A stretch of 64,000 nt of DNA. Origin: Candidatus Methylomirabilota bacterium. GTDB taxonomy: Bacteria; Methylomirabilota; Methylomirabilia; Methylomirabilales; 2-02-FULL-66-22. The notes under the pieces are model-generated. The model was not told the origin of the DNA and did no database searches. It saw nothing but the letters and a program-made list of their open reading frames with translations. Location: contig JACQVN010000009.1 of NCBI GenBank assembly GCA_016209735.1, positions 30,381-94,380 of the forward strand, read 5' to 3'. This document shows, piece by piece, positions 7,216 through 55,208 of this stretch (positions within the stretch are counted from its first letter, which is position 1; each line of letters begins with the position of its first letter). A program made the translations under genes and the position numbers.

Positions 7216-7419
7216 CGGCGAACCTTTGGCCGCCCGCGGCGGTTATGCATTGAGAGGGACTGGCGAACCAGAGGCAATGCAAAACTGGCAACCGGCAGAG
7301 GAAGTGCCGACAACGGACCACTGACTGCTTAGAGGCTGTGGAAGAATCCCAGGAGCAACCAGTGGTGCGATGGCTCGCATCTGCCTGGACACGACATCGC
7401 CGTACAGCTAACCCGGGTT

Positions 7420-7583: not shown

Positions 7584-7734
7584 GGGTGGTTGAGATGGTC
7601 TGAGCAACGAGCCTTTGCTTCCCACGGCTGCCGCAAGCGGTGACCGCCGGTCCAGCGATCGGTCTTGTCGTGCGGACGGGGGGAGTGGCTTTACCTGAAT
7701 CTTCCACCGCTGTCCGTTTTACCCCCCCAGATAG

Positions 7735-7939
7735 TGCAAAGATATCTTTCTACGGCGCTTTCGAGCAGTTCCACCGAGTGAACGCGTGGTGGGGCGCGAA
7801 ATTCGGGTCTCCTGCGGTCGCGCGTAACCGTCGGGGTTACCTGCTCTCGGGTTGGCCGTTGGTTGCTCCCGATCGATCTAACGGAGGTTCCCCGAGGTCT
7901 TTCACTCCTGATTTTTTGCGCGCTCAGCGCAAGAACCAG
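7735..7939 (+). mobile_element. MITE/PATE-like element, copy 4 (diverged; only the right-end hairpin is retained)
   Basis: Collinear similarity to the core of copy 1/2. Ends in TTTTTTGCGCGCTCAGCGCAAGAACCAG. Confidence 0.5.
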
Positions 7940-8010
7940 ATTTTTACATTTTGCATTCTCCGTTGTCTGTCTTTCCATAGGGCCGCATGCCATGCGGCTT
8001 GGAGGGTGAG

Positions 8011-8547
8011 ATGTCCACGAAGGTTCTCTCACTGGCGGCGGGGATCCTCCTTCTGGCGGGTTGCGCGGGGATGGGGGCGGGAGGGAGCAGTAGCTCTGTC
8101 TTTGCCCCGTATCCTCCGCCGGGCATGGACCATCAAGTGGGCGCAGAACACGTCGAGCTGTTCTGGCGCTGCCTTCGGCCGGAGCCGGGACTGCTCAGGC
8201 TGGACGGGCTGGCGATGAATCGCAGTTCGCCACATCCGGTGCAATTCTTCAAGGCGGAGCTCGTCGGCGTGGATGCTGGTGAGCGGACACGCTCCTCCGG
8301 CCGAGCGGAGGCGCGGGACATCGTGATCCGCACCTACGAGGCGTCCCCCTTCGAGATCGTGCTCAGGGAGGGTGGGGACGAGGTGCGCTTTGACCTTTAC
8401 TACGATTACCAGGCTCAGATCCCGGATCATATTATCCTCTCTGCTGGTGCGCGGTTTCGCATGTTCGCTTACTATCAGCGCTACCTAGCGAGGGATGCCT
8501 GCAATCCCGCAGCGCACCGGTCAGGTCCCAGTTCGATCACGCAGTGA
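8011..8547 (+). CDS. Lipoprotein of unknown function
   Basis: MSTKVLSLAAGILLLAGC lipobox. A GGAGGG RBS lies 5 nt upstream of ATG 8011. The stop overlaps the ATG of the PAP2 fragment. Confidence 0.6.
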   Translation: MSTKVLSLAAGILLLAGCAGMGAGGSSSSVFAPYPPPGMDHQVGAEHVELFWRCLRPEPGLLRLDGLAMNRSSPHPVQFFKAELVGVDAGERTRSSGRAEARDIVIRTYEASPFEIVLREGGDEVRFDLYYDYQAQIPDHIILSAGARFRMFAYYQRYLARDACNPAAHRSGPSSITQ

Positions 8548-8804
8548 TGCAGGCGATCACCCGGCTCGGCCTCGGCTGGGTGGACATCGGCCTGTTCGTA
8601 GCCCTCCTGACCGCTGGCTGGTGTCGGCGGTGGGCGGAAGGTCGCCGGATCGGCCTGTATGACGCGCTGGCGGTGTCGGGCGCGGGGCTTCTCGATCAGC
8701 TTCTCAAACAGCTCTCCTGCCACGCGCGTCCCAGCGCGCCCGAAGCCGGTCTCTTCCTCGCCAAGTTCCCTTGCGTCTTCGATGGCTATGCCCATTCCTC
8801 GTGA
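8544..8804 (+). pseudogene. Truncated paralogous copy of the PAP2 gene N-terminal half (lacks the catalytic motifs)
   Basis: 8547-8800 is about 90% identical at the nucleotide level to 6456-6712. The reading frame stops just before the SGH motif. Confidence 0.65.
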
Positions 8805-8847
8805 GTTGACCGCAGTGCCGGCAGAAGGGCACGGACCATGAACGACT

Positions 8848-9040
8848 GGCTCGTGGCTGATGGCTGATGGCTGATGGCTCATGGGGGACCGGTCTCTACC
8901 ATGAGCTATGAGCCATGAGCCCCATCCGGGGAAGTAGGGAGCAGGGGCGCAGGGGAGCGGAGGGTAACGGACGATGGATGGGGGACCAGGGACGATGGGC
9001 GATGGACCAGGGACGATGGACCGTGGACGTGGCAGCCTGG
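8848..9040. repeat. (GGCTGAT)n / (CATGAGC)n imperfect foldback, followed by GGACSAT-type units
   Basis: ggctgatggctgatggctgatggctcatgg ... ccatgagctatgagccatgagcc. The downstream flank parallels 7003-7215. Confidence 0.7.
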
Positions 9041-9334
9041 CACAACGGGAAACGGCTACCCTCGTGAGCCTGGCGGTAATCCTTCTCTTTTATTCTTCAG
9101 TTGATCCCACCGCCGCGGCGTTTGCGGTTGAACGCCCAGCCCCGCTGTGATAAGAAATGGACAGCTCCGCGAGCGACGAGGAATACGCCGAGGAGGGGCG
9201 GCCACTGCCACCGGACGTCTGAACCTTGGTCGATCATGCCAACCATGCGAAAGGTTGCCGCCATTCTTCAACAGGCCGGTATCGATGAAGAGGTATTTAG
9301 AAATCTGACTCGCCAGGAGGCTGGTGAAAAGCAT

Positions 9335-9470
9335 CCGCTCACCCTTCGACGGGCTCAGGGTGAACGGGTTCGGCTCTGACCAGGTCGAGGTGAGCGGGCC
9401 CCGACGGGCTCACCCTTCGATCCCGCCTGGGCGGGACTCAGGGTGAGCGGGTCGAGATTCGTCGCCGAGA
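9335..9470. repeat. GCTCACCCTTCGAC...CTCAGGGTGAGCGG palindromic repeat family
   Basis: Two to three copies here. The same family occurs at 11600-11915 and 17790-17860. Confidence 0.7.
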
Positions 9471-9627
9471 TCATGGCTCACCGTACCAAGCACTCTTGGT
9501 CGCAATTCCGGTGGCGTATTCTGAAGCGGAAGAGTCATGAGAGATCCGGTTTACCTCCCGCATTGTCCCTTACAGCATGGGGGGAGCAGTAACGTGACCT
9601 GTTGGCCGTTCAGACCCGTGGAACTCT

Positions 9628-11535
9628 TTGGCTGCTAAGCGCACGACCCTCATCCTGCTCGTCGTCTCGGGCACACTCTTCTTCACGCAACTGGGCGGGA
9701 CCGGCCTCTTTGACGCGGACGAGCCGGCCTACGCCCAGGCGGCGCGGGAGATGCTCGCACGCGGGGACTGGATCACGCCGACCTTCAACGGGGCCCCCCG
9801 CTTCGACAAGCCCGTCCTATTCTACTGGCTGATCATGGGAAGCTACGCGGGCTTCGGGGTGAGCGAGTTTGCCGTGCGCCTTTGGTCGGCGCTGGCCGGG
9901 ATGGCCCTGGTCCTGCTGACGGCCTGGGCGGCTCGGCGCTGGCTTCCGCCATCGGCGGACTTCTGGGCAGGCGTGGCCCTGGCCACCTGCTTTCTCACCG
10001 CGCTCCTGGCGCGGGCCGCGGTGACGGACATGCTCCTTGCCCTCTGCGTCACGGCAGCCATCCTGGCGGGAGTCGCGGCCCTGGAGGTGCCAGACCGCGC
10101 AGAGCGCATGGCGCACAGGGCACAGGGCACAGGGCATGGCGCACAGGGCATGGCGCACGGCGCAGAGCGCACGGCTTACGACGCACAGGGCACAGTGCTC
10201 GACGCACAGGGCACAGCGCTCGGCGCACAGCGCACGGCGCACGGTGCACAGCGCTCGGCGCGCGGCGCTGGAAGCTGGGCTCTCTTCGCCTGGGCCGCCA
10301 TGGCGTTGGCCGTCCTGGTGAAGGGCCCCATCGGTCTTGTGATCCCCGCGATCACCTTCGGCCTCTCCCTGCCGGCAACCCGGGAGGTCCGCTTCGGCCT
10401 CCGGCGGCTCGTCCCCTGGCAGGGTCTGTTGCTCTTCCTGTGTCTCACCTTGCCCTGGTACCTTCTGGTCCTCCGGGCCAACGGCTGGGCCTTCGTCGAG
10501 GGTTTCGTCATCAAGCACCATTTCACCAGGTACACGGGGGTGGTCTCCAGCCACGCGGGGCCGTTCTGGTTCTACCTTCCCGTGCTCCTGATCGGCTTCT
10601 TTCCGTGGAGCGGGTACCTGCCGTCGGCCGGCTGGCGGGCCTGGCAGATCCTGCGGCGGCGGAGGGCCGAGCGGCATGGAGATCGGTTGATCGTTGTCTG
10701 CGCCTGCTGGGCGGCGGCGGTGTTCGTCTTCTTCTCGCTGGCCGGGACCAAGCTTCCGAGCTACCTGTTCCCCGCCTTCCCCGCCCTCGCCCTGCTGGTT
10801 GCGGGGCTCGGAATTTCAAATGAAAAATGCAAAATGAAAAACCGGCCAACGGAACAGACGGTTGCCCGGTTTTCCATTCTCAATTTTTCGTTTTCCATTG
10901 ACCAGCCGCGCATCGACGCGCGCCTGGTTCGCCTGGCGCCGTGGCTCATCGGCGGCGTCGGCGCGGCGCTGGCCATCGGCTTCGCCCTGCTTCCGTGGAT
11001 CCTGGAATTGGCGCGACCGGCCGCCCGGGGGATCCTGGATGGAGTCGAGGCGCCCACCGCCCTGGCCTTCGGGCTGGCGGGGCTTCTGGGTGTGGGCACG
11101 ACTACAGGCCTTTGTGCGTCGGGCTGGCGGCGCCCGTCCATCCTGGCAGCCATGATGGTCGGAGTGATTCTGGCGGCCGCGCTGCTGGCGGCGCCCAAGG
11201 CGCATGCCATCTTGCAGGGTGCGCTCAGGGAGTTTAGCGACGATGCTCGCCGCCTGGTGCCGCCGGACGGCACGGTGGTCGCGTATGGACTGAATGCCCC
11301 AAGCATAGTATTCTACGCGGAACGCCGGGTTCTCCCGTTGGGGCCCGGCACCCCGGACGGTCTCGATCGGATCCAGCGCCTGCTCGCCGAAGGCCGGCCC
11401 ATCGTGGTCATCTCCCGCAGCGCGCACGCCCCGATCCTGGATCGCGTTCCCGGGCTGATTCGCGGGAAAGCCCGTAGCGGGTTCGCGATATATTGGCCTC
11501 GGGCGGCTAGTCAGATTTCCGCTGCCCCACGGTAA
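9628..11535 (+). CDS. GT39/ArnT-like (PMT_2) membrane glycosyltransferase with two in-frame repeat insertions
   Basis: N-terminal LFDADEPAYAQAAREM...GDWITPTFNG.PRFDKPVLFYWL is characteristic of ArnT/PMT-family enzymes, and the protein has many TM segments. At 635 aa it is about 85 aa longer than expected, matching the two inserts. Confidence 0.8.
   Translation: MAAKRTTLILLVVSGTLFFTQLGGTGLFDADEPAYAQAAREMLARGDWITPTFNGAPRFDKPVLFYWLIMGSYAGFGVSEFAVRLWSALAGMALVLLTAWAARRWLPPSADFWAGVALATCFLTALLARAAVTDMLLALCVTAAILAGVAALEVPDRAERMAHRAQGTGHGAQGMAHGAERTAYDAQGTVLDAQGTALGAQRTAHGAQRSARGAGSWALFAWAAMALAVLVKGPIGLVIPAITFGLSLPATREVRFGLRRLVPWQGLLLFLCLTLPWYLLVLRANGWAFVEGFVIKHHFTRYTGVVSSHAGPFWFYLPVLLIGFFPWSGYLPSAGWRAWQILRRRRAERHGDRLIVVCACWAAAVFVFFSLAGTKLPSYLFPAFPALALLVAGLGISNEKCKMKNRPTEQTVARFSILNFSFSIDQPRIDARLVRLAPWLIGGVGAALAIGFALLPWILELARPAARGILDGVEAPTALAFGLAGLLGVGTTTGLCASGWRRPSILAAMMVGVILAAALLAAPKAHAILQGALREFSDDARRLVPPDGTVVAYGLNAPSIVFYAERRVLPLGPGTPDGLDRIQRLLAEGRPIVVISRSAHAPILDRVPGLIRGKARSGFAIYWPRAASQISAAPR
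10096..10265 (+). repeat. (GCACAGSG)n-type array inside the ArnT-like CDS, in frame
   Basis: Encodes AHRAQGTGHGAQGMAHGAERTAYDAQGTVLDAQGTALGAQRTAHGAQRSARG. The units are the same as in the intergenic arrays at 3290-3372 and 34444-34650. Confidence 0.85.
10812..10900 (+). repeat. AT-rich AAATGCAAAA-type hairpin inside the ArnT-like CDS, in frame
   Basis: aaatgaaaaatgcaaaatgaaaaaccgg ... ccggttttccattctcaatttttcgttttccatt. Same family as 36141-36230 and 38596-38688. Confidence 0.85.
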
Positions 11536-11599
11536 GTGGAGAAGCGCCCCGTGACATGGATTGCTGGAATTGCGGTCGAGAACACTTGGCGGTCCGCTG

Positions 11600-11915
11600 A
11601 AGAGAGGTTGTCGATATTTCGACGGGCTCACGCTTCGACGGGCTCATGCTTCGACGGGCTCATGCTTCGACGGGCTCAGCATGAGCGGATGGTGCGTCAA
11701 GCCCGCTCACCCTGAGCCTGTCGAAGGGCGACGGGCTCATGCTTCGCCCCTTCGACCCTTCGACAAGCTCAGGACTCAGGGCTCAGCATGAGCGGAAATA
11801 CATCGGCGCAGTCAAGGTTTCCCCCGCTCACCCTTCGGCCCTTCGACGAGCTCAGGACTCAGGGCATGCCCTGAGTCTCGCGCAGGCGGGATCGAAGGGT
11901 GAGCGGAGGGTTTTC
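11600..11915. repeat. Cluster of GCTCA(C/T)GCTTCGACGGG / CTCAGGGTGAGCGG-type repeats
   Basis: Tandem cgacgggctca(c/t)gctt units are followed by inverted copies, filling the spacer between the ArnT-like gene and ispB. Confidence 0.75.
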
Positions 11916-11968
11916 GGCATCCTGCGAGGAACGCAGGGTGGCACCGGCAGCAGGTTCACACACACGCC

Positions 11969-12955
11969 ATGACCGAGCTTGCACAACAGAACGGTCTCTT
12001 CGGCCTCGTCGCCGAGGAGCTCCGGGCCGTCGAGACGTGCCTCCAGGCGCCGGTGGGGGGGAACGGTCTCCTGTCTAGCGTGGCCCGCTACGCCATCGCT
12101 TCCGGGGGCAAGCGAGTCCGCCCGGCCCTGGTCCTCCTGGCGGCCCGGGCCTGCGGCGCAAAGGAGGCCACCCGGATGGTGATGCTGGCCTCAGTGGCAG
12201 AGATGATGCATGCTGCCACGTTGATCCACGACGACATCGTGGATCGCTCCCCCACCCGCCGGGGCCGGCCGTCCACCATGGCCCGCTGGGGGGCGGAGGT
12301 GTCCGTGCTGGTCGGGGATTTCCTCTACTCCCGGGCCGTGCAGATGCTGGTGGCAGACGAGGACCTCCGGATCATGCGGGGTTTCGCGGATGCCACCGTG
12401 GCCATGACCGAGGCGGAGGTGCTCCAGTTACAGCACCTCTGGAACCTCACGATGCCCGAGCCGGACTACCTCAAGATCGTGCGCGGGAAGACGGCGGCCC
12501 TCATGTCCGCCTCCTGCCGCGGCGGGGCGCAGGTGGCGGGGGCCCCCGAGGCGGTCATCGAGGCCCTGGCCGCCTATGGCCTGCAGCTCGGCATCGGCTT
12601 TCAGTTGGTGGACGACGCCCTGGACTATGCCGCCCGGGAGGAGCGACTAGGCAAGCCCGTCGCCAGCGATTTCCGCGAGGGGAAGATCACGTACCCGATC
12701 CTTCACGTCATGGCCGTGGCCTCGGAGGCGGATCGTGCCGCCTTGGTGCGGCTGGCGGGACAGCAGTCGATCGAGGAGGGGGATGTGGCCTTCCTCCGCG
12801 CGCTGGTCGAGCGGTACGCTGCGATCCCGGCCACGATGCGCCTGGTGGATGGCTACCTGGCGCGGGCGCGGGCGTCCCTGGGAGCCCTCCCCGACTCCCC
12901 CGCCCGGGAGAGCCTGCTCCGACTGGTGGACTTTGTGCGGGAACGCGATTGGTGA
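11969..12955 (+). CDS. ispB: Long-chain polyprenyl diphosphate synthase (IspB-type)
   Basis: First DDxxD motif in LIHDDIVDRSPTRRGRPS and second in GFQLVDDALDY. 328 aa. Confidence 0.85.
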   Translation: MTELAQQNGLFGLVAEELRAVETCLQAPVGGNGLLSSVARYAIASGGKRVRPALVLLAARACGAKEATRMVMLASVAEMMHAATLIHDDIVDRSPTRRGRPSTMARWGAEVSVLVGDFLYSRAVQMLVADEDLRIMRGFADATVAMTEAEVLQLQHLWNLTMPEPDYLKIVRGKTAALMSASCRGGAQVAGAPEAVIEALAAYGLQLGIGFQLVDDALDYAAREERLGKPVASDFREGKITYPILHVMAVASEADRAALVRLAGQQSIEEGDVAFLRALVERYAAIPATMRLVDGYLARARASLGALPDSPARESLLRLVDFVRERDW

Positions 12956-12964
12956 ATGCTGTTG

Positions 12965-13148
12965 CGGTTCACGGTGCGGCGGTTCACGGTGCGGCGGTTG
13001 GGGCTCCAGCGGTTCACGGTGCGGCGGTTCAAGCCTCGAAGTGTCAACCTTGAACCTTGAACCTCGAACCGTCAGCCTCGAACCCTGAACCTCGAACCTT
13101 CAACCGTGAACCGTCAACCTCGAACCTTGAACCGGAAACCTTGAACCC
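12965..13148. repeat. (GGTTCACGGTGCGGC)n followed by (GAACCTYG)n arrays
   Basis: Three 15-mers, then about 12 GAACC-containing octamers, running up to the lepA start. Confidence 0.85.
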
Positions 13149-13152
13149 CCGT

Positions 13153-14955
13153 ATGGATCACATCCGCAACTTTTCCATCATCGCCCACATCGACCATGGC
13201 AAATCCACGCTGGCGGACCGCCTGCTGGAACAGACGGGGACCCTCAACTCCCGCCAGATGGCGGACCAGGTCCTGGACAGCATGGATCTGGAGCGGGAGC
13301 GGGGGATCACCATCAAGGCCAAGGCGGTCCGCCTGCACCACAGAGGATCCGACGGCCAGGAATACCTGCTGAACCTGATCGACACCCCGGGTCACGTGGA
13401 CTTCAGCTACGAGGTCTCCCGAAGTCTCTCGGCGTGCGAGGGGGCGCTGCTAGTGGTGGACGCCGCCCAGGGGGTGGAGGCGCAGACGCTGGCCAACGTC
13501 CACCTGGCCATGCAGAATAACCTGGCCATCCTCCCAGTCATCAACAAGATCGATCTCCCCAGCGCCGACGTGGAGCGGGTCAAGGGTCAACTGGAGGAGA
13601 TCCTGGCCCTAGACAGCCGGGAGGCCGTCCTGGTCAGCGCCAAGTACGGCACGGGCACGGCGGAGACGCTGGAGGCCATCGTCCGGCAGATCCCGCCGCC
13701 GAGGGGCTCCGTGGCCGCGCCGCTCAAGGGGCTGATCTTCGACTCCTGGTTCGACAGCTACCAGGGGGTCATCGTCTACGTGCGTCTCTTCGACGGCGTG
13801 GTGGCGCCGGGGATGCGAATCCTGTTGATGTCCAGCGGCGCCGTATACGAGGTGACGCAGGTCGGGGTATTCACGCCGGCGATGCGGCCGGTGGATCGCC
13901 TGTCGGCCGGCGAGGTGGGCTACGTCATCGCGGGGATCCGGGACGTCCGGCAGAGCCGGGTGGGCGACACTATCACCGAGGCGAATCGCGCCACGGCGCG
14001 ACCGCTGCCCGGGTTTCGGGAGGTGCTGCCCATGGTCTTCGCCGGCCTCTATCCGGTGGAGAGCGCCGACTATCTGAGCCTCAAGGGGGCCCTGGAGAAA
14101 CTCCAACTCAACGACGCCTCCTTCTCCTTCGAACCCGAGACGTCCCTGGCCCTGGGGTTCGGCTTCCGCTGCGGCTTCCTGGGCCTCCTGCACCTGGAGA
14201 TTGTCCAGGAGCGGCTGGAGCGGGAGTTCGGCCTGACGCTCCTCACCACGGCGCCCACCGTGGTCTACCGGGTCACCACGACGGACGGAAGGGTGCTGGA
14301 GGTGGAAAACCCCAGCAAGCTTCCGCCGCCCCAGGAGATGCTTCGCATCGAGGAGCCTTTCATCACGGCCTCCATCATGTCCCCGACCGAGTACGTCGGG
14401 CCGATCCTCTCCCTCTGCCAGGAGAAACGGGGGGTGCACAAGGGGATCGAATACCTGAAGGACGCCCGGGTCGTCGTCGCGTACGAGCTGCCCCTCAACG
14501 AAATCGTGCTGGATTTCTACGACCGGCTGAAGTCGGTGAGCCGCGGCTATGCCTCTTTCGACTACGACTTCCTGGAGTACCGGGAGAGCCCCCTGGTCAA
14601 GCTGGACATTCTGGTGAACGGGGAGCCGGTGGACGCCCTCTCCTTCATCGTCCATCACCATCACTCCCAGGCCCGCGGCCGTCTCCTGGCCGAGAAGATG
14701 CGGGAATTGATTCCGCGCCAGCTCTTTGAGGTGGTCATCCAGGCGGCGATCGGCAGCAAGGTGATTGCGCGCGAGCGCATCGCCCCGCTGCGCAAGGCGG
14801 TCACGGCCAAGTGCTACGGAGGGGACATCACGCGCAAGCGGAAACTTCTGGAGAAGCAGGCCGCGGGCAAACGGCGGATGAAACAGGTGGGTCGCGTCGA
14901 GATCCCCCAGGAAGCCTTCATGGCCGTCCTCGCGGTGGGGAAAGAGTCAAGTTAG
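13153..14955 (+). CDS. lepA: Translation elongation factor 4 (LepA)
   Basis: [25 protein letters not shown]..., [13 protein letters not shown] and the C-terminal LepA_C region. The annotated upstream 32 codons are encoded by the tandem repeat. Confidence 0.95.
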
Positions 14956-46984: not shown

Positions 46985-47069
46985 ACCAAGGACCAAGGAC
47001 CAAGGACCAAGGACCAAGAACAGGGGCACCTTCGGGTCCGTCTCCATTGGGATTTGGTCATTGGTCATT
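46985..47069. repeat. (CAAGGAC)n and (TTGGTCA)n heptamers after the rpoD stop, forming an imperfect foldback
   Basis: caaggaccaaggaccaaggaccaaggaccaag ... gatttggtcattggtcattg. Confidence 0.7.
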
Positions 47070-47088: not shown

Positions 47089-47165
47089 GGGCCCATAGCT
47101 CAGTTGGTTAGAGCCACCGGCTCATAACCGGACGGTCGCAGGTTCGAGTCCTGCTGGGCCCACCA
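47089..47165 (+). tRNA. tRNA with CAT anticodon (elongator Met, or Ile2 if lysidine-modified), CCA encoded
   Basis: Hand-folded cloverleaf: acceptor GGGCCCA/TGGGCCC, D arm GCTC-AGTTGGTTA-GAGC, anticodon arm CCGG-CTCATAA-CCGG, T arm GCAGG-TTCGAGT-CCTGC, then A-CCA. Confidence 0.9.
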
Positions 47166-47179
47166 CCAAAATCCCCAAG

Positions 47180-47214
47180 AAAAGCCCGTCTGACGCCATG
47201 TTAGACGGGCTTTT
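47180..47214 (+). terminator. Rho-independent terminator just after the tRNA
   Basis: AAAAGCCCGTCT-gacgccatgtt-AGACGGGCTTTT. Confidence 0.8.
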
Positions 47215-47421
47215 GCATTCAGGAGAAGTGGGGTGCCGTTATGCGCGTTCTTGCACTTTCTTGCCGTTTTTCTGTAGCGAACCGGCACCTGTACCGGCAC
47301 TTGAGGCCATACCCCTGGGGAGTATACATGGGGGCACCTACCCCCCCGGCAAGGCCAGGGGGGCATAGGCAGGGACAGGTGGTCTTCGGTATCGAAAGGC
47401 TGAAACGCCTGGAGGTGTAAC

Positions 47422-47658
47422 GTGCGGCTATTCGGGCGGGTTGCCATCATGCGGTATCTCGGCTACAGCGGGACTTGCCATCACACCTGGGCGAGCATCC
47501 GCCAGCGGTTCTCCGGCGCGATCTACCGTGACGTGGACAATGGCCGGGTGTGGGCAGAGGGGGAACATCTAGATGCTTTGCGGTCTGCCGGCGATCCTGC
47601 GGCGGCCCTGCGGCGACTCCAGCGCCAAGTTGAGCGGTTCGAGACGCGGAGATCGTGA
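47422..47658 (+). CDS. Hypothetical small protein (island-borne)
   Basis: 78-aa ORF with a GTG start. No recognisable motif. Confidence 0.3.
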   Translation: MRLFGRVAIMRYLGYSGTCHHTWASIRQRFSGAIYRDVDNGRVWAEGEHLDALRSAGDPAAALRRLQRQVERFETRRS

Positions 47659-47832
47659 CGGGGACCTGTTTACGCCGTCTTGCGGACTATCGAAACGCCA
47701 CGGGCTTGCAAGCATCGCAGACAAAGTGTAGCGTGTGAAGCACTCCCCTGGCCTAGGGTAGCTCCCGAAAAGCCGCTTCCCGAGCGGCCTGGCCGGGGAA
47801 CCTCTCGGGGCTCTGCATCAGGGAGGAGCATC

Positions 47833-48453
47833 ATGCCACGTCGCCCTGACCGGCCGCTGCCCCCGCCACACTTGGTTTTCCCCGCGCTTTTTGGTGAAGC
47901 TGCTCAAGATGAGCGGCCGATGGATGCAGGCACGCGTGAAAGATTCTCCGACGCCTGCATAGAGGGCCTGCTGTCCCGCCTGGAAGCCAAGGATGACAAG
48001 GAGAAATTCCTCCGGGAGCTGATACCTGAGTTGCAACGGAGATTTGAACGGGGAATCACCGGGGGGGCGGTTTACCGTATTCTTCGACACGCAAAGCCCG
48101 CCCGCAAGAACGAACGCCCTAGCTGCAAGCCTGGCCTGCTACTCTATCACTACGCCCTAGCGGAGAAATTGCTGAGGGGCATTCTCGTTTCAAATCGGCA
48201 AGCAGCAAAACGCGCAGACGCTCTAGTGAAATACGCCGATGCACTCAATACACGCCTGAATGAGGAGTATCGCTGCGACGACTGCGGACGCAAAACCATT
48301 CCTCCAGACGACTTCAGAGAATGGGCTCTCAGGAAACATACAGAGCGGGAGATAATCCTGAAGCTCTTGGCCTACCACCACCACGGCTTTTCTCCCGACA
48401 GCCTGCGCCGGCTACTCGACAAGGCCGCTCAACAGAATCGGCCTCTCCGCTGA
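47833..48453 (+). CDS. Hypothetical protein (island-borne)
   Basis: ATG preceded by GGGAGGAG. 206 aa, with a CDDCGRK motif. GC is lower than the chromosome in its 3' half. Confidence 0.4.
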   Translation: MPRRPDRPLPPPHLVFPALFGEAAQDERPMDAGTRERFSDACIEGLLSRLEAKDDKEKFLRELIPELQRRFERGITGGAVYRILRHAKPARKNERPSCKPGLLLYHYALAEKLLRGILVSNRQAAKRADALVKYADALNTRLNEEYRCDDCGRKTIPPDDFREWALRKHTEREIILKLLAYHHHGFSPDSLRRLLDKAAQQNRPLR

Positions 48454-48582
48454 CAATCTCGCTACTTATTTGATACGCGAAGCTTCCTGAAAAAGTCGCC
48501 AAACCTGGTTTGTGCGCCACGTACCCTTCGTGCAGGCACCATTTGCAGATTATCACGGTTTGCCGCATGGAGGAGACAAGCG

Positions 48583-48783
48583 ATGGATTACATCACGGTT
48601 GACGAGGCTGCTGAACTGACGGGATGGACACGGGCCACATTGTATTCGAAAGCGAGCAGAAGGCAGATCCCGAGCTACCGGATAGGACGGTCCTTGCGTT
48701 TTCGTCGGCAGGACATGCTAAACCTGTTCAGGCCCCGCCCCGCCCTGCGCCCGCTGGCCGACAAGGAAGGGGGCGAGTCATGA
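48583..48783 (+). CDS. Excisionase-family / MerR-like helix-turn-helix DNA-binding protein
   Basis: ITVDEAAELTGWTRATLYSKASRRQIPSYRIGRSLRFRRQDM matches the excisionase-type HTH pattern. GGAGGAG RBS. The stop overlaps the next start. Confidence 0.7.
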   Translation: MDYITVDEAAELTGWTRATLYSKASRRQIPSYRIGRSLRFRRQDMLNLFRPRPALRPLADKEGGES

Positions 48784-50843
48784 GCGCCCCCACCATTGCC
48801 CCCACGAAGACCAAGACGCACCTTGACGCGGCTCTTGACTATCATGCACTCGACTGGACCGTCATTCCGGTGAGTGCCGACAAGAAACCCCTAGACTTCA
48901 TAAAGTGGGGACGCTGGCGCAACCAGCGCCAAACCGAGGCCGAGGTGCGGGCCCTGCCGTGGCATCGGGCCTATGGTATCGCCCTACTTACCTGGCCCGT
49001 CTCCGACTTGGTGGTGGCGGACTTCGACGGTCCGCACGCCGAGGAAGCGTGGCAGGTGAAAGGCAAGCCGCTCCCCGACACGGCGCGGACCCGCACTAGG
49101 AGCGGGGGGAAGCACCTGGTTTATCATCCCCCCGCTGGCATCGAGCAGTTCACGGACGACAACGGCGGAAAGCCCAAGCGCAAAATACGACTGATCGAGG
49201 CCGACTGCGACTGCATGAAGGACGGCCACCCGAAACCGTGCGGGGTGGATGTTCTGGTCAACGGCTATTTCATTGTTCCGCCGTCTCCGGGGTATGTGGA
49301 GGACCCTGACTGGCCCCTTGAACCCACGAACATTGTCACCATCCCGCACGAAGTCTTAGACCTTGCCCGTGGGACTCAGGGTTCGCCCAGGAAAGCGGAG
49401 GTGTCATCCGAGCCTAATTGGTACGGGGAGGCCATGCGGGGGCCCGTCCCGCAGGGTCAGCGGAACGAAACTGCCACCCGGCTGGCAGGACTGCTACTTG
49501 CGAAGGGGTTGAGCGCCGACTATGTGACGGACACCTTGACCCCGTGGGCTGAGCGAACATGCGCCCCGCCGATGGACCTGCGCGAGCTGCGGGCCACGGT
49601 GCAGAGCGTGGCGCGGCGGGAAGCCACCAAGCCCACGTTTGCCGATGAGCCCGACCCGGAGCCGAGCGACACGGTGCTAGGGCGGTTCCCTGAGAAAGCA
49701 TGGCGCGGCATCTTTGCCACCTACCGCGAGGCCATGCGGGAGGCCACCCACGCGCCCGAGGTGGCGATCTTCACCGGGTTGTGGGCAGCGGCAGCGGCAA
49801 GCCTGGCCCGCCGTGTCCACTTCTACCTCGGCATGGAGATATTTCCCAATGTGGCCCTCGCGGTGTACGGCGACACAGGCGACGGCAAGACGACCGGGAC
49901 ACGCCACGGGGTAGACCGGCTGCGCCTCCTGGGCGATCACGTCGGCGTGCTGCGTGGAAGCGGTAGCGGCGAGGCGGTGGTGGACTGGCTGCGCGGCGAA
50001 AAGGACGCTCACTTGTGGTACGCCGAAGAATACTCCGAGATCCTGATCCGGGCCGGGTGGGACGGGGCCACGATCAAGAGCACGATCACCACCCTGTACG
50101 ACTGCCCTGAGACGTTCGAGTTGAAATTCCGGCGCGACAAAGACGCTACGCCACTCACTAGGCCGACGCTCAACCTGTTGGTCTGCACGACGCCGGCGAC
50201 GTTCTGGAAATACCTGCGGGACGACGATATAGAAAGCGGGTTCGGCAACCGCTGGCTGTACCTGGCAGGGGACCAGCGCCCGACCATCCCACGGCCCGCC
50301 CGCCCGGATGAAAAATTGCTGGCCGTGGTGGAAGAGGCCCTGGCGCGGCTCACCGGGTTGACCCCGACCGAGTGCGCCCTGGCGCCCGACGCGGAACCGC
50401 TTTGGGATGAATTCTACCGGGCGTGGGAAGCGGAGAAGCTGCAACCATTGACCCGCATGGCAGCCAAGCGGGTGCCGCAGTATGTCCTGAAACTGGCCAT
50501 GCTGTACGCGGCCCTTGAGGGGACGGTGCCCACCCTGACGGCCGAGCAATTGGTGGCGGCGATCATGGTAGGGAAGTATGCGACCGACTGCGCGGACCGG
50601 CTCATGCGGGACCTAAAGCCTGGGGGGTTTCGGAACCGGCTGGAGATCCGCGTTCAGGAGATCCTGAAACACGATCCACTGCCCATGTACAAGATCCAGC
50701 GTCAGGTGGGGGGCAACGTGGCGGTGGAAGATCTTGACCGGACGATCCGGGCGCTGGACCGGGCGGGAATGATCGAGGTGATAGGCAAAACACCGAAGCA
50801 ACTGCCCGTCTGGGGCCGGGTGGGGGTGGACTATGGGAAATAG
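48780..50843 (+). CDS. Bifunctional primase-polymerase (Prim-Pol) with PriCT-like and P-loop helicase (DUF3987-like) domains
   Basis: W.VIPV...KKP...W, VVADFDG (DxD), SGGKHLVY, GQRNETATRLAGLLLAKG (PriCT-like), and the Walker A-like GDTGDGKTT. Confidence 0.8.
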   Translation: MSAPTIAPTKTKTHLDAALDYHALDWTVIPVSADKKPLDFIKWGRWRNQRQTEAEVRALPWHRAYGIALLTWPVSDLVVADFDGPHAEEAWQVKGKPLPDTARTRTRSGGKHLVYHPPAGIEQFTDDNGGKPKRKIRLIEADCDCMKDGHPKPCGVDVLVNGYFIVPPSPGYVEDPDWPLEPTNIVTIPHEVLDLARGTQGSPRKAEVSSEPNWYGEAMRGPVPQGQRNETATRLAGLLLAKGLSADYVTDTLTPWAERTCAPPMDLRELRATVQSVARREATKPTFADEPDPEPSDTVLGRFPEKAWRGIFATYREAMREATHAPEVAIFTGLWAAAAASLARRVHFYLGMEIFPNVALAVYGDTGDGKTTGTRHGVDRLRLLGDHVGVLRGSGSGEAVVDWLRGEKDAHLWYAEEYSEILIRAGWDGATIKSTITTLYDCPETFELKFRRDKDATPLTRPTLNLLVCTTPATFWKYLRDDDIESGFGNRWLYLAGDQRPTIPRPARPDEKLLAVVEEALARLTGLTPTECALAPDAEPLWDEFYRAWEAEKLQPLTRMAAKRVPQYVLKLAMLYAALEGTVPTLTAEQLVAAIMVGKYATDCADRLMRDLKPGGFRNRLEIRVQEILKHDPLPMYKIQRQVGGNVAVEDLDRTIRALDRAGMIEVIGKTPKQLPVWGRVGVDYGK

Positions 50844-51255
50844 GCTACCAACCTACCAACCTGTAAGTGTGGTTGCCAACCGGGGTTCCGGGGTTGGCAG
50901 GTTGGCAACCATATCTCCGTTGCAAGCCCTGGTGGACCGATTGGAGAATGCGCCACCACCGGAAAGAGGATCGGGCGACCCCCTGGCCCTTCTCCTGGTG
51001 ACCCGACTTGACCATTTGGCCGAGCCGCTGGCGGTGGTGTCGTCTGTCCTGCGTGAGACCATATACCTGGTGGCGAATGATCGGCAGGCAGCGGCGGTCA
51101 GGGCGAAGGGCGGGACCCCGTACACCCCGCCCGAGGTGGCGATCCTGCGGGACCTGTACGCGGCGGTACGCCCCGAGGTGTGGGCCGAACGGTTGCGGCT
51201 GATCCACCAGGCCAAGCGCACATTTGATGGCGACGTGCGCGGGAGCGCGGCATGA
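50833..51255 (+). CDS. Hypothetical protein (start uncertain; the 5' end overlaps a cluster of CCAACC iterons)
   Basis: 140-aa ORF with no motif recognised. Confidence 0.3.
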   Translation: MGNRLPTYQPVSVVANRGSGVGRLATISPLQALVDRLENAPPPERGSGDPLALLLVTRLDHLAEPLAVVSSVLRETIYLVANDRQAAAVRAKGGTPYTPPEVAILRDLYAAVRPEVWAERLRLIHQAKRTFDGDVRGSAA

Positions 51256-51301
51256 GAAGCGAGGCGCGTCCACCCCCTCCGGGAGCGAAATGGTGAGCAA
51301 C

Positions 51302-52363
51302 CTACCTCAGAAGGTTTGGGAAAAAGCGGATGAGCAGCAACAAAAGGACACCCATTCCAATTGTGATGACCCAGACCCGAAGCGAGCGGAGAGCCCATGA
51401 CACGCTTTGAAGCTCACTCTGCACTTCGTCTCGAAACTCTACGAGGTTCTCATCTGCTGGAGGCTTTCGTGGCTCCCGCGACGTGGAAATAGCGGCTTCA
51501 CGGCATGCACTATCAGAATCTTCCCTCCCCAGTTTTAGGGTTTCCTTGTCGCGGAAGTCGCAGCTATAAAGGATTACCTGCCGGAGATCGGGGTCTTTCT
51601 GGGCTCGGTAGACCTTGGCCTTTGTCGAATCGGGCGCAACAACGGTTTCATAAATCGCACATGGTATCCCACTCTTGGCCGGCCACGTTCCGGCAAGCTC
51701 CCAGAGGCGCAAGAGGTATTGTTCGACCCCCCCGGCATAATCAATCAGGTGCTCGTCATAGCCGGTCTCGTCAATGAGCGTTTTCCTTCTTCGTTGAAAC
51801 TTGTTCTGTTTCACCAGGCTCTCGTTCGTGAGGTAGGCAACAATCAACCCCGTACGCTCTTTAGTGCTGATGCCAAGCTCTTTCTTCTGGTAGTCAAAGA
51901 GTTTCTCGATGAATAGTTCAGGTACTTCTGGATTCCGAACTAACGCGAGACGTTCCAAGGGGCTGGATCTCTGAAACCGCTCCCCGAAGTCCGACCAGAG
52001 CGCTGACAGGCCAGGGCAAATGACTTTGTTCTCAAGCAAACAAGCACGAACGAATGGGTCCGGATCGTTCTGAAGACGCCCCTCTAGGTTCCGTTCCGGG
52101 AGGCTGTATGTCAGCTTATCACCGTCGGAGTGACACTCACGGAAATCGAGGATCTTGCCATGGCGGGCGATCCATGCCCTAAGCTGTGGGTTTGGATCTT
52201 CGACGGCACGGAGCACGATCTCGTAAGGGGGCCCAATCAGAGGAGTTCTGTAGACCTTTCGTAACAGACGAATGCGGCCCACAACGTCAGACGCTTCGTA
52301 CTCCCGCCGCACTTCCTCCAGAGTGTAGGCATCATAGATTGAGTACCTCGTCAGCCTGTTCAT
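51302..52363 (-). CDS. HEAT/LRV-like repeat protein with a C-terminal transmembrane anchor (island cargo)
   Basis: Repeats EDPNPQLRAWIARH, NDPDPFVRACLLEN, VRNPEVPELFIE and KDPDLRQVILYS. C-terminal VWVITIGMGVLLLLLIRFF. Visibly lower GC than its surroundings. It is the only intact minus-strand gene in the window. Confidence 0.6.
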   Translation of the reverse strand: MNRLTRYSIYDAYTLEEVRREYEASDVVGRIRLLRKVYRTPLIGPPYEIVLRAVEDPNPQLRAWIARHGKILDFRECHSDGDKLTYSLPERNLEGRLQNDPDPFVRACLLENKVICPGLSALWSDFGERFQRSSPLERLALVRNPEVPELFIEKLFDYQKKELGISTKERTGLIVAYLTNESLVKQNKFQRRRKTLIDETGYDEHLIDYAGGVEQYLLRLWELAGTWPAKSGIPCAIYETVVAPDSTKAKVYRAQKDPDLRQVILYSCDFRDKETLKLGREDSDSACREAAISTSREPRKPPADENLVEFRDEVQSELQSVSWALRSLRVWVITIGMGVLLLLLIRFFPNLLR

Positions 52364-52519
52364 GGTCGCACCTCTCGGTGGATGGGAGTGAAGATGCGGC
52401 AGGTAATTCGGACCACGGTTACGGCCGGGACGTTATCAGGAGGCGGATGCCATGTCAAATATCCCCCTGGGGCAAGTTACCCCTTGACAGCGCAATAGAG
52501 AGTGCTTATGATAATAATC

Positions 52520-52771
52520 ATGCCACTCAAGACGATAGCGCAGCAAGTGCAAACCTGGCGGGAACACCGAGAGTTGAGTCAGCGGGCGCTGGCGAAAGCG
52601 GCGGGCGTGGCCCCGGTGTTGGTGCAGAAGATCGAGGCCGGGGCCATCGTTGACCCCCGCCTGTCCAGCCTGCGCAAGCTGGCGGGGGCCCTGGGCGTGA
52701 CGGTGGGCGAGTTGGTGGACGGGAGCCCGGCGAAGGCCAAGAAGCGGCCCACGAAGCGGGCCGGGAGGTAG
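52520..52771 (+). CDS. XRE-family helix-turn-helix transcriptional regulator
   Basis: WREHRELSQRALAKAAGVAPVLVQKIEAG...PRLSSLRKLAGALGVTVGELV. Lies immediately upstream of int and diverges from the cargo gene. Confidence 0.75.
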   Translation: MPLKTIAQQVQTWREHRELSQRALAKAAGVAPVLVQKIEAGAIVDPRLSSLRKLAGALGVTVGELVDGSPAKAKKRPTKRAGR

Positions 52772-54040
52772 GTGAACATGGACGCGAAGGCCGAGCACGT
52801 GATCGTGATCCCGGAAGCGTGGGCCGAGGCCCAAGTCAACGCCGTCGCCGTCGAAGTGGAGAAGCGGACGAAGCGGAAGGGGAAGAAGGAGGAGCCCCCC
52901 GCCAAGGTGCGCGGGGTGTTCTTCCGACCGAACGCGAACGGCCAAGTCAAGGACCATCTCGGCCGACTCGGAGACTGGTGGTGCCGCTACACCGACCTGG
53001 CTGGCATGGAGCATCGGGAGAAGGCCGGAAGCCGACCTGCAGCCATTGACTTGTACGGGCGGCGACGGTCGGAGGTACGCCAGGGGAAGCAATTCCCCGA
53101 GAGCCTGCGGAACCTGCGGAAAGCCTCACTGGCCGAAGTCTGCCACGACTACCTTGTGTCGCTGGCGGCGAACGGGCGGGACGCCAGGGGCCAAGCGGCG
53201 TTTCGACTATCCGAGGTGCAGAGCATTCTCGGTGCGGTTGCGGCGGAGACGGTGACGCCCCAGGAGATCGAGAAGCTGAAGGCGAAGTTGGCCGAGACTC
53301 CGGCCCGTGGGCGGAAGGATCCCCAGGACCCGAAGAAAGAGCGCCCCCGAGCCCCAGGCAGCGCAAACCGCTACCTGCAAGACCTCCGGGCGGCGTTCAA
53401 CGTGGCCCGACGCAACGGGAAGGTGGAGAAGAACCCCGTGGGTGACGTGCGGCTGCTGCGGGAGAACAACAAGCGCGTGCGGGAGATCACAGCCGACGAA
53501 GAAAAGGCCATCCTGACGGCGCTGGACCCCCAAGAGCGGCGGTTTCATACCGATCTGCGCCCGATGGTAAAGCTTCTGCTGGAGACCGGCCTACGGGCCG
53601 GCGAGGCGTGCCGCCTGCGCTGGCCTGACGTGGACTGGCGGGCCGAGGTGGCGACCCTGCCCAAGACGAAGGCCGGGGCGGCGCAGCATGCGGCCCTGAA
53701 CGCCGCTGCCCTGGCGATCCTCCGGGCCCTCGGCCCCCAGGGTGACGGTTACGTGTTCGCGTGGAAGGGCGGGCGGCCGTGGACGGTGGGCTACCTGACT
53801 CACGCCTTCCACAAGGCGGCCCTCAAGGCGGCCGTGGTGGACGTTCACCCTCACGACTGCCGCCACACGTTCGCCTGTCGGCGTCTGCGGGCCGGCGTGG
53901 ACATCTTCGCCGTGTCGAAGCTGCTCCGGCATGCATCGGTGACGATGAGTGAGCGGTACGCGCACCTTTCGCAAGCGGACCTGAAGGCGGCGGTTGAGCG
54001 TGCATCTCCGACGCCGACCGGCACTCCAACCGGCACCTGA
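52772..54040 (+). CDS. int: Tyrosine-type site-specific recombinase / integrase
   Basis: C-terminal catalytic region ...LLLETGLRAGEA (Arg I), HDCRHTFA (HxxR), and LLRHASVTMSERYAHL (catalytic Tyr). ATG 52778 is the more likely start. Confidence 0.9.
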   Translation: MNMDAKAEHVIVIPEAWAEAQVNAVAVEVEKRTKRKGKKEEPPAKVRGVFFRPNANGQVKDHLGRLGDWWCRYTDLAGMEHREKAGSRPAAIDLYGRRRSEVRQGKQFPESLRNLRKASLAEVCHDYLVSLAANGRDARGQAAFRLSEVQSILGAVAAETVTPQEIEKLKAKLAETPARGRKDPQDPKKERPRAPGSANRYLQDLRAAFNVARRNGKVEKNPVGDVRLLRENNKRVREITADEEKAILTALDPQERRFHTDLRPMVKLLLETGLRAGEACRLRWPDVDWRAEVATLPKTKAGAAQHAALNAAALAILRALGPQGDGYVFAWKGGRPWTVGYLTHAFHKAALKAAVVDVHPHDCRHTFACRRLRAGVDIFAVSKLLRHASVTMSERYAHLSQADLKAAVERASPTPTGTPTGT

Positions 54041-54094
54041 AAAACGGGGCGGCTGTAAATGCTTGCCATTGCGACGGTTCAAGAGATAGACCAT

Positions 54095-54143
54095 CCGGCT
54101 CATAACCGGACGGTCCCAGGTTCGAGTCCTGGTGGACCCACCA
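54095..54143 (+). repeat. attR: duplicated 3' half of tRNA(CAT)
   Basis: CCGGCTCATAACCGGACGGTCcCAGGTTCGAGTCCTGgTGGaCCCACCA. It has three differences from the tRNA, two of which are a compensatory T-stem pair swap. Confidence 0.85.
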
Positions 54144-54203
54144 CAGTCGCGTAAAATATGTACTTATGCTACCTTGCTCCTCAACGAACAAGTGGAGGTG
54201 CGT

Positions 54204-55208
54204 ATGCCCCGTGGCCCGCGACTGGATGCCCCCGGCGTTCTGCACCATGTCATGGTGCGAGGCCTGGATCGGCAGGTCATTTTCCGAGATGACCGGGACC
54301 GGGACGACTTTGTCGCGCGCCTCGCCGGTCTTGTTGAGGCAGGCGCGTGGACGATTTATGCCTGGACGCTTCTCCCAAATCACGCCCACCTGCTCGTGCG
54401 GACGGCCCGGCGTCCACTGGCACGTACCATGCGCTCGCTCCTCACCGGGTATGCGGGCACCTTCAATCGGCGGCATAAGCGGAGCGGACACCTCTTCCAG
54501 AACCGCTACAGATCCATCGTGGTCGAGGAAGATCCATACTTTCTCGAACTCGTCCGCTACCTCCACCTCAATCCATTGCGGGCCGCTATCGTCACTGACT
54601 GGCGGGCATTGGAGCGTTATCCGTATTGTGGGCACGGAGCGATCCTCGGGAAGCAGGAGGTTGACTGGCAGGAAACAAGTGCGGTCCTCCGCCAGTTCGC
54701 AGAGCGCCTGCCCACCGCGCGGGCACGATACCGGACCTTCGTGGCGGAGGGTGTCTCTCGCGGGCGACGGCATGATCTGATGGGGGGCGGCCTCATTCGT
54801 AGCGCTGGAGGGTGGGCCGCCGTAGCCGTCCTTCGCCGCGGGCGTGAGCGGTATGCAGGCGACGAACGGATTCTGGGCAGCAGTGAATTCGTCGAGACGT
54901 TGCGTGGGGAGATCGAGCGGACGGAAGCCGGGCGCCTGCACGCGAGGTGGCGCAAGCTCACCGCAGCTGCTCTGATAGCACGGATAGCTACTGCCGAGAA
55001 GGTCCCTGTGGAGCGTCTTCTGGGCTCGGGCAGGCCCCGGACAGTCTCTCGGATCCGTCGGGGCCTCGCCTACCTTTGGGTCGAGGAACTGGGCAGGAGC
55101 GGCCGGGCCCTTGCCCGGGAGCTTGGAATCTGTCCGGAAGCAATCTACCACGCGGCAGTGCGGGGACGGAAGGAAGCCGTGTATTGGCAAGCAATGCTGG
55201 AATCGTAA
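54204..55208 (+). CDS. IS200-like Y1/HUH transposase of the REP-associated (RAYT) type, with a C-terminal DnaA_C-like HTH
   Basis: HVM.RG..R..IF.DD.DR..F, the HUH motif LLPNHAHLLV, GHLFQNRY.S, and the catalytic Tyr region YFLELVRYLHLNP. The C-terminal RIRRGLAYLWVEELGRSGRALARELGI is HTH-like. GGAGG RBS. Confidence 0.75.
   Translation: MPRGPRLDAPGVLHHVMVRGLDRQVIFRDDRDRDDFVARLAGLVEAGAWTIYAWTLLPNHAHLLVRTARRPLARTMRSLLTGYAGTFNRRHKRSGHLFQNRYRSIVVEEDPYFLELVRYLHLNPLRAAIVTDWRALERYPYCGHGAILGKQEVDWQETSAVLRQFAERLPTARARYRTFVAEGVSRGRRHDLMGGGLIRSAGGWAAVAVLRRGRERYAGDERILGSSEFVETLRGEIERTEAGRLHARWRKLTAAALIARIATAEKVPVERLLGSGRPRTVSRIRRGLAYLWVEELGRSGRALARELGICPEAIYHAAVRGRKEAVYWQAMLES

Follow-up and report, generated by a model that had tools for sequence, protein, structure and literature searches.

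Within a 64,000-nucleotide (nt) stretch of the genome of a Candidatus Methylomirabilota (NC10) bacterium (GCA_016209735.1, contig JACQVN010000009.1, positions 30,381 to 94,380; hereafter the window, with coordinates counted from its first letter and features on the forward strand unless stated otherwise), a 6.98-kb element is integrated in the tRNA-Met(CAT) gene downstream of rpoD. The element is probably intact and self-replicating, with no transfer machinery of its own and with a helper phage as the most likely means of spread. It is a fairly ordinary member of the small integrative elements that carry an integrase, an AlpA-like regulator and a primase (minimal satellites or hitchers), and it resembles PICMI, Type C PICI and tycheposons. 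The original prediction, which placed a mobile element in a tRNA gene and likened its genes to those of a satellite or small island, is borne out by three sister elements that share its backbone, by an empty site for one of them (L027) and by the presence of an int-alpA RNA.

Domain scans agree with the original prediction on gene content as well, with an integrase (int), an XRE-family regulator, an HTH_17 protein, a replicase with PrimPol, PriCT and P-loop parts, four unknown proteins (orf78, orf206, orf140, and orf353), and no capsid, terminase or conjugation genes. No capsid, terminase, relaxase or FtsK-type match was found in Pfam and PHROG scans of the open reading frames (ORFs) of the element, and all of its non-coding gaps measure at most 261 bp. 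The proposed search of the unknown ORFs against phage and defence profile sets was unproductive, as orf78, orf206, orf140, and orf353 gave no significant Pfam, PHROG or PADLOC match.

Integration into the tRNA gene

The ends of the element are formed by a direct repeat (47109-47166 and 54087-54144), the longest in the 45.5-56 kb region (58 nt, 90% identity, six mismatches), and 6.98 kb is the length of the DNA between its two copies. A 49-nt direct repeat of the 3' half of the tRNA(CAT) had been named as the boundary, and this core (47117-47165 and 54095-54143) does bound the element and has exactly the three differences described, namely a compensatory swap in the T-stem (GCAGG/CCTGC in the tRNA and CCAGG/CCTGG in attR) and a G→A change in the 3' acceptor strand. 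The other three mismatches of the 58-nt repeat lie on its left side, in the region of the D-stem and anticodon stem, and a 21-nt identical stretch, CCGGCTCATAACCGGACGGTC (47117-47137), sits between the two groups of mismatches. Patterns that span 25-31 nt of the repeat match nowhere else in the window than at its two copies, with 0 expected in shuffled sequences.

The left copy, attL, lies within a complete tRNA-Met(CAT) gene (47089-47165; called by ARAGORN and scored at 69 bits by the Rfam tRNA model), which appears to be a hybrid. Judged by the positions of the mismatches, its 5' part would be that of the host and the portion 3' of the anticodon region that of the element, and CCGGCTCATAACCGGACGGTC, which covers the anticodon stem-loop and the variable region, is the probable site of crossover. 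Directly 3' of the restored tRNA is a hairpin followed by a T-run (47180-47214; inverted repeat of 15 nt, 93%), probably the terminator of the tRNA. In alignments, this hairpin is kept in the P' arm of two sister elements at the same tRNA (L004 and L027), and a similar hairpin follows the tRNA at a site that looks unoccupied (L019), so that the element can be taken to supply both the 3' part of the tRNA and the terminator. In the right copy, attR (54087-54144), an element-derived left part (GACCATCC...) is joined to the displaced 3' part of the host tRNA (the CCAGG/CCTGG allele with a change at A69). The element has evidently swapped in its own functional tRNA 3' part with a terminator hairpin and displaced the original 3' part of the host to attR. 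A repeat of the tRNA 3' part, an integrase gene and a tRNA gene that is kept intact, as found in islands integrated into tRNA genes by tyrosine recombinases, are all present. The neighbours of the site are rpoD at the left and a Y1_Tnp (RAYT-like) gene at the right; the latter encodes an IS200-like Y1 transposase (54132-55208, probable start at ∼54204), lies directly to the right of attR and may relate to REP-like repeats, of which the palindrome GGTGTAGGGGCGGCCCCATGTGGCCGCCCGGCA has seven copies in the window.

The differences between the two copies had been taken to reflect two functional tRNA alleles, one from the element and one from the host. This stands for the T-stem, as related contigs contain full-length tRNAs of both kinds; CCAGG/CCTGG is the usual allele of NC10 metagenome-assembled genomes (MAGs) and, with the 5' half of the window tRNA, makes up the full tRNA of L019, while GCAGG/CCTGC is also found as a full tRNA, including that at an empty site (L020). 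It does not stand for the acceptor-stem base. A69 of attR is present in 0 of 24 related full tRNAs examined and would mispair with C4 of the host 5' strand, and it is therefore more likely a mark of decay in a displaced, non-functional remnant than an allele.

The element-derived left arm of attR, GACCATCC, is common to the window and L027, with the variant GAGCATCC in L004, and re-creates U27-A43 pairing, which is missing from the host tRNAs. The host tRNA-Met(CAT) family carries a purine-A mismatch at 27:43 (A-A in the window, G-A in most NC10 relatives) and an acceptor stem that begins with GGGCCC, and both elongator tRNA-Met and tRNA-Ile2 are possible identities of a tRNA with a CAT anticodon. 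The attR regions of three elements exceed the gathering score of the Rfam tRNA model (window 54076-54140, L027 867-933, and L004 9028-9094; 32-36 bits over the full model length), and in the window the element-borne left arm pairs by hand with the 3' acceptor strand at five of seven positions, which may be the relic of a captured tRNA or chance. A complete element-borne tRNA at attR was considered and rejected, as most of the score is contributed by the 3' two-thirds and only 4-5 of 7 positions of the putative 5' acceptor strand can be paired (hand pairing, window and L004). A scan of viral contigs with a pattern specific to the anticodon arm of attR was likewise set aside, since it returned more than 120 unrelated phage tRNA-Met genes and the arm has the ordinary look of a tRNA with U27-A43.

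Inside both att sites lie predicted arm-type binding sites of the integrase. The motif ACCGGCAC has six matches in the window, four of which form two tandem pairs with 12-bp spacing at the ends of the element (47281/47293 and 54017/54029): the predicted P' sites (47281-47300) just inside attL, and the predicted P sites (54017-54036) just inside attR, within the last codons of the integrase gene (PTGTPTGT). When the P and P' arms of the window element, L027, and L004, all at tRNA-Met, are aligned, the site pairs hold the same positions. The sequence of the sites changes together with the type of integrase across the sister elements; ACCGGCAC is common to the window and L027, whose integrases are 68% identical, and L004, whose integrase is 55-60% identical to the other two, has ACT(A/T)GCAC.

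The tyrosine integrase itself (52772-54040; Phage_integrase) has all of its catalytic residues (R, K, HxxR, H, and Y) and is 60-68% identical to those of L004 and L027. Its start is abutted by the stop codon of the repressor-like XRE-family helix-turn-helix (HTH) gene (52502-52771; Pfam HTH_3, E 4e-12), an arrangement also found in the sister elements L003, L004, and L027, and the two genes are probably translationally coupled. A candidate sigma-70-like promoter (52484-52512; TTGACA-17-TATGAT, 11 of 12 positions), recognised by its match to the consensus, is placed so that it could give a leaderless XRE-int transcript from the ATG at 52520. The first gene after attL, orf78 (47422-47658; no Pfam or PHROG match), is 30% identical (E 5e-5) to the ORF that comes first behind attL in L004 and, by analogy, may encode a DNA-binding or directionality factor tied to the type of integrase.

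Sister elements and empty sites

Relatives were searched for with the 5' half of the tRNA in a genome collection and with a degenerate att pattern in metagenomes. The rpoD-tRNA-Met synteny is kept in MAGs of NC10, Binatia, and Acidobacteriota, and homologues of the replicase occur in NC10/Methylomirabilota-type MAGs and metagenomes. The check for related elements at the same tRNA that had been proposed gave two at rpoD-tRNA-Met, namely L004 (JGI metagenome; rpoD-tRNA-Met(CAT), 8.6 kb, 56-nt repeat; integrase 60%, XRE 59%, and replicase 33% identical) and L027 (metagenome; 6.1 kb; integrase 68%, XRE 46%, and HTH_17 56%, with a PrimPol-AAA_25 replicase). A third sister, L003 (GCA_040960995.1; 8.5 kb), lies in tRNA-Lys with a perfect 44-nt repeat (C-terminal part of the replicase 64%, orf140 73%, integrase 32%), and a related replicase is found beside tRNA-Gly in L002 (GCA_030157145.1), an element that was not delimited. 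The backbone common to L003, L004, and L027 is [cargo]-HTH_17-PrimPol/helicase-small ORF-[cargo]-XRE-Int between tRNA-derived repeats. L003 is closer to the window element in its replicase and L004 in its integrase, and the integration and replication modules have therefore been shuffled between elements.

An empty site was found for L027, where positions 1-617 of L020 are 100% identical to the left flank of L027 through the tRNA and positions 561-1481 are 94.7% identical to its attR and right flank, so that L027 is present in one and absent from the other of two near-identical contigs. The check for an empty attB or a circular attP thus succeeded for this sister and not for the window element itself. 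A relative with an unoccupied-looking site (L019), a truncated element (L023) and decayed fragments beside the same tRNA (an XRE fragment in L005, and C-terminal integrase fragments in L006 and L026) were also found. The family is therefore mobile, and tRNA-Met is a hot spot seen empty, occupied and decayed. In L018 (Ga0214473_10243173; ∼1.2 kb), the tRNA is followed by 128 nt like the P' arm of L027 and then by the right flank of L027, which is likely the remnant of a deletion. A tblastx comparison of the right flank of the window element with the loci of the relatives gave high-GC noise only and no signal of synteny.

These comparisons bear on the proposal that the block is an ancestral chromosomal locus and that its repeat arose by partial duplication of the tRNA and not by site-specific integration. 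All that speaks for it is that no empty site was directly seen for this particular genome; the block is missing from relatives that share the rpoD-tRNA synteny (L019, L020, and others), different elements (L004 and L027) sit at the same site, the GC content of the element is below that of its surroundings, and the arm-site architecture argues for integration, which leaves this explanation highly improbable.

The decayed copies at the same tRNA (L005, L006, and L026) raise another explanation, in which the element is an immobile remnant of a larger prophage or conjugative element that has been kept in the chromosome. The one non-tRNA substitution in attR and the lack of evidence of activity for the window copy would fit it. 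However, none of the eight ORFs is broken and the catalytic motifs are kept, the two att sites and the two pairs of arm sites are in place, and a sister element (L027) shows presence/absence polymorphism. In addition, four independent elements of 6-9 kb share the minimal gene set, so that the small size is the norm of the family and not a result of decay. A remnant is accordingly unlikely, and an intact integrative element remains the preferred reading.

Replication module and candidate origin

The AlpA/excisionase-like HTH_17 regulator (48583-48783; Pfam PF12728, E 1.8e-10; PHROG excisionase families) has a stop codon that overlaps the start of the replicase gene (ATGA). The replicase (48780-50843) joins a Prim-Pol domain (DFD and SGGKH motifs), PriCT_1 and a DUF3987 P-loop helicase (Walker A GDTGDGKT). 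DUF3987 has been shown experimentally to be a 5'-3' helicase that works with PrimPol as the replicase of mobile elements (PMC11724360). The replicase is modular, as its N-terminal PrimPol+PriCT part occurs fused to DUF3987, AAA_25 or KaiC/DnaB-type helicases. A comparison of its sequence with the PDB gave nothing useful.

An inverted pair, GGTTGCCAACC / GGTTGGCAACC (50871-50910), follows the replicase gene, and these are the only two matches in the window. L003, with three exact copies, and L002, with near matches, have the same cluster where the primase gene ends, and the DNA there is conserved at 81%, above what the protein identity of the replicase would suggest. The cluster is a candidate replication origin or replicase binding site. 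The small conserved protein orf140 (50833-51255), whose gene overlaps that of the primase by 11 nt, always follows a replicase of the DUF3987 type, with 73% identity in L003 and 33% in L002. Matches of orf140 to Cas6 (PADLOC, E 4.5e-5, partial) and TfoX_N (Pfam, E 0.024) were dismissed as weak, and its single-sequence AF2 model is poor (pLDDT 59).

An int-alpA RNA ahead of the cargo gene

An int-alpA RNA (Rfam RF02996), which had escaped the original prediction, was found at 47746-47810, in the gap between orf78 and orf206 and 22 nt upstream of the ATG at 47833. It scores 51.7 bits (E 8e-8) against a gathering threshold of 35.8, and it has the integrase/alpA context of the family, upstream of the HTH_17 gene region. 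The sister element L003 also carries the RNA (within 1345-1439; 37 bits), 21 nt upstream of the next gene. All three helices persist in a comparison of six int-alpA sequences, and 9 of 15 pairs show compensatory changes. The int-alpA RNA is known from Proteobacteria. Its presence here may extend the motif well beyond that phylum, and it links the element to satellite-type islands.

For comparison, a consensus-like int-alpA copy is present in 177 of 5426 complete E. coli genomes. In the four E. coli loci that were inspected (L154-L157), the RNA directly follows a tyrosine integrase gene, and the next gene begins 24 nt after the RNA match in L154 and ∼39 nt after a partial blastn match in L155-L157. 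The order at these loci is int-RNA-hypothetical-HTH-...(Icd-like), followed by a toprim primase and a DUF927 helicase in L154, for which longer flanks were available. One scanned E. coli island has int-alpA at 64 bits together with P4-type C4 and isrK RNAs, and in P4 itself a scan for the int-alpA RNA found none. The excised circle of the window element would read int-attP-orf78-RNA-orf206-HTH_17-primase, which matches the gene order in E. coli except that attP has changed sides relative to int. The proteins encoded downstream of the RNA have no detectable homology among the window, L003, and E. coli, and the four from E. coli share only a distant relationship.

Cargo genes and composition

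The gene that follows the RNA, orf206 (47833-48453; low GC at third codon positions, GC3), was given its start from the ribosome-binding sequence GGGAGGAG, and gene callers give a 177-amino-acid version that begins at 47920. About nine relatives of orf206 were found among 1.84 billion representatives. The second cargo gene, orf353 (51302-52363, reverse strand), has the lowest GC of the element and encodes a HEAT/ARM-like alpha-solenoid with a C-terminal membrane helix; its AF2 model (pLDDT 89.8) is a solenoid with a long C-terminal helix, and comparison of the model with the PDB gave only generic HEAT solenoid matches. There are 115 unannotated homologues of orf353 across several phyla, some of them in other mobile elements or variable regions. 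One that is 53% identical holds the same position beside XRE-AbiTii-int in an integrated element that also encodes a prohead protease (L028), and others lie near toxin-antitoxin genes, a transposase or a terS remnant. L028 (JGI 3300039222, Ga0436546_0001472; 4394-14400, beside thrS-infC) carries int, AbiTii, XRE, the orf353 homologue, Peptidase_S78, HTH_17 and many unknown genes, and may be a capsid-forming satellite or a small prophage. A role of orf206 and orf353 in defence or exclusion is a guess from their position and composition.

The GC content of the element is 62.3%, and every equal-sized segment of the window outside it has at least 63.2% (mean 66.6, standard deviation 1.8). The GC3 of orf206 and orf353 is 0.61-0.62 (orf353 0.61) vs 0.86-0.90 in rpoD and orf476. 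It had also been argued that the element, being free of the repeats that saturate the flanking chromosome, arrived recently. Heptamer tandem arrays do occupy intergenic regions at 0-38.6 kb and a place at 46985-47018 and are absent from the element, but they are equally absent from the nearby 38.7-46.9 kb and 54.1-61.1 kb, so that the argument does not discriminate, and the lower GC is a better argument for foreignness than the absence of repeats. The arrays number in the dozens (393-38627 and 46985-47018; GGCACAG, GGACCAT, AACCTTG, ACGTAAA, GCCGAGC, ACCAAGG, and others), and similar heptamers (TTGGTCA and GTTCGGC) flank the same tRNA in related contigs. A 98-nt tRNA-Thr(TGT) called by ARAGORN over a heptamer array (3538-3635, reverse strand) has no match to the Rfam tRNA model and is probably a false call.

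Comparison with known systems

One close likeness is to the PICMIs (phage-inducible chromosomal minimalist islands), whose search model consists of Int PF00589, AlpA (PF05930/PF12728) and a DUF3987/DUF5906 primase (PMC10803314). PICMIs excise on induction by a helper phage and are packaged in its capsids as concatemers. The element has all three markers, in the families Int PF00589, PF12728, and DUF3987 PF13148, with AlpA beside the primase. It is also similar to PICMIs in its size (∼6-7 kb), in having six to eight genes with few unknown cargo genes, in a small gene coupled to int, and in being without capsid-remodelling or packaging genes. It differs in its site (rpoD-tRNA-Met and not beside fis), in its host (Methylomirabilota and not Vibrionaceae), in the N-terminal PrimPol+PriCT of its replicase and in the XRE gene before int; the likeness is one of gene markers and layout.

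The original comparison with P4-like and PICI-like satellites stands for the minimal class of elements with int, AlpA and primase and falls for P4 or PICI proper. P4-like satellites have seven core components, which are int, psu, delta, sid, alpA, epsilon, and alpha (PMC10085698). The element has only int and the AlpA-like HTH of these, a PrimPol replaces P4 alpha, and no Pfam or PHROG match to Psu, Sid, Delta or epsilon was found in it. PICIs have five and cfPICIs eleven core components, which include genes for packaging or capsid redirection (PMC10085698), and in the element terS, capsid, portal, and head-tail matches were all lacking. Elements with only int, AlpA, and primase were classed as Type C and excluded by the authors of that study, who regard the class as possibly undescribed satellites (PMC10085698), and the element is at best of this type.

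The E. coli int-alpA islands (e.g., NZ_CP027586.1 2134869-2145030) have the RNA at the same distance, 21-24 nt, upstream of the gene before the AlpA-like HTH and the same int-RNA-X-HTH-...-primase-helicase order as the excised circle, and the annotated attP of P4 has its core flanked on each side by tandem 12-bp arm repeats, the same layout as in the element. In contrast to these islands, attP of the element lies on the other side of int, so that the maps are circularly permuted. The element is further set apart from the E. coli and P4-like islands by the absence of C4 and isrK RNAs, Icd, and psu/delta/sid/epsilon and by a PrimPol-DUF3987 replicase in place of toprim+DUF927 or P4 alpha, and P4 is without the int-alpA RNA.

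The tycheposons of marine picocyanobacteria (bioRxiv 10.1101/2020.12.28.424599) are similar to the element in architecture, with a tyrosine recombinase at the 3' part of a tRNA (including a tRNA-Met(CAT)), a partial tRNA repeat at the far end, an excisionase, a primase/helicase, variable cargo, and degenerate remnants at the same tRNA; the element is found in another phylum, and no large cargo or flanking island was seen. The pAgo-associated integrase/AgaPP/AgaPH elements (PMC11724360) likewise have an integrase, PrimPol, PriCT-DUF3987, an adjacent tRNA, lower GC, and defence-type cargo, but here PrimPol and PriCT-DUF3987 are fused in one protein, Argonaute is absent and the element is much smaller. 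The FtsK/SpoIIIE-type Tra, type IV secretion, and relaxase genes that mark AICEs, ICEs, and IMEs gave no Pfam match in any ORF of the element.

Proposed life cycle and mode of spread

The arrangement of the genes suggests a simple cycle. The XRE regulator, expressed from the consensus-like promoter and coupled to int, would keep the element quiescent. Once the element is induced, the integrase would excise a circle with the aid of the AlpA/Xis-like HTH_17 protein and perhaps of orf78, and PrimPol-DUF3987 would replicate this circle, starting at the conserved GGTTGCCAACC repeat cluster where the replicase gene ends. As a 5' leader or a small RNA, the int-alpA RNA could act on the neighbouring cargo gene. 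The exchangeable cargo would consist of orf206 and orf353, possibly for defence or exclusion. Since there are no genes for a capsid, packaging or conjugation, spread must use a helper. This would most likely be a phage, as for a minimal satellite of the PICMI or Type C PICI kind, with vesicles or natural competence as alternatives, and dependence on a helper phage is an inferred property of the element.

Several points weigh against this account. No packaging signal, terS, capsid-redirecting gene or helper phage is in view. The roles given to XRE, HTH_17, orf78, the origin, the promoter, and the RNA are drawn from position and analogy. The substitution in attR that is found in no full tRNA means that the insertion is not brand new and that activity is not guaranteed. 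For the window element itself, neither an attP or attB junction nor an empty site turned up, and the only other copy found is an identical 3-kb Logan contig. Single-protein scans of IMG/VR viral contigs with the integrase and replicase gave nothing, profile scans of IMG/VR gave only phage proteins of 21-32% identity (one of them, L162, in a true phage fragment with TerL and portal genes), and tblastn of the replicase gave one weak match in cultured phages and none in plasmids; the lack of a close relative of either protein in these collections leaves no sign of packaging.

An integrative plasmid-like island would excise and replicate in the same way and would spread by vesicles, natural transformation or conjugative hitching through an unrecognised oriT. 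This possibility, although the less favoured one, deserves serious weight. Pfam and PHROG detect no phage-related gene or packaging function, viral contig collections hold no relatives, tycheposons with the same set of modules are enriched in vesicles (bioRxiv 10.1101/2020.12.28.424599), satellites can reportedly move by competence (PMC13376191), and PrimPol-helicase replicases are common on plasmids (PMC5862659). However, no recognisable relaxase or oriT is present, both the int/AlpA/primase set and the int-alpA RNA are associated in other settings with P4-like or PICI-like islands, and PICMIs, which carry these three markers, have been proven to be satellites (PMC10803314). Carriage by a helper phage is therefore kept as the more probable mode of spread.

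Significance for Methylomirabilota

The NC10 bacteria include nitrite-dependent methane oxidisers. Their mobile elements appear to be undescribed, as a literature search on the phylum name and "integrase" gave none. The findings do not overturn current understanding, because small int/AlpA/primase islands are already known as numerous and under-described. A bolder and rather doubtful proposal is that the 6-9 kb elements are the first phage satellites of Methylomirabilota and share a circularly permuted int-RNA-cargo-alpA-primase plan with enterobacterial P4-like islands. If this were true, the int-alpA RNA, 21-24 nt ahead of a cargo (defence) gene that can be exchanged, would represent an ancient control element shared across phyla, and undescribed anti-phage or exclusion functions would fall to orf206 and orf353.

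The family offers a defined attB/attP system, made up of a core, arm sites and an integrase whose type goes with the sequence of these sites, and a compact replicon that consists of PrimPol-DUF3987 and a candidate origin. With rpoD-tRNA-Met as an integration hot spot seen in its occupied, empty and decayed states, these elements can be of use in reading genome plasticity in NC10 MAGs and possibly as genetic tools.

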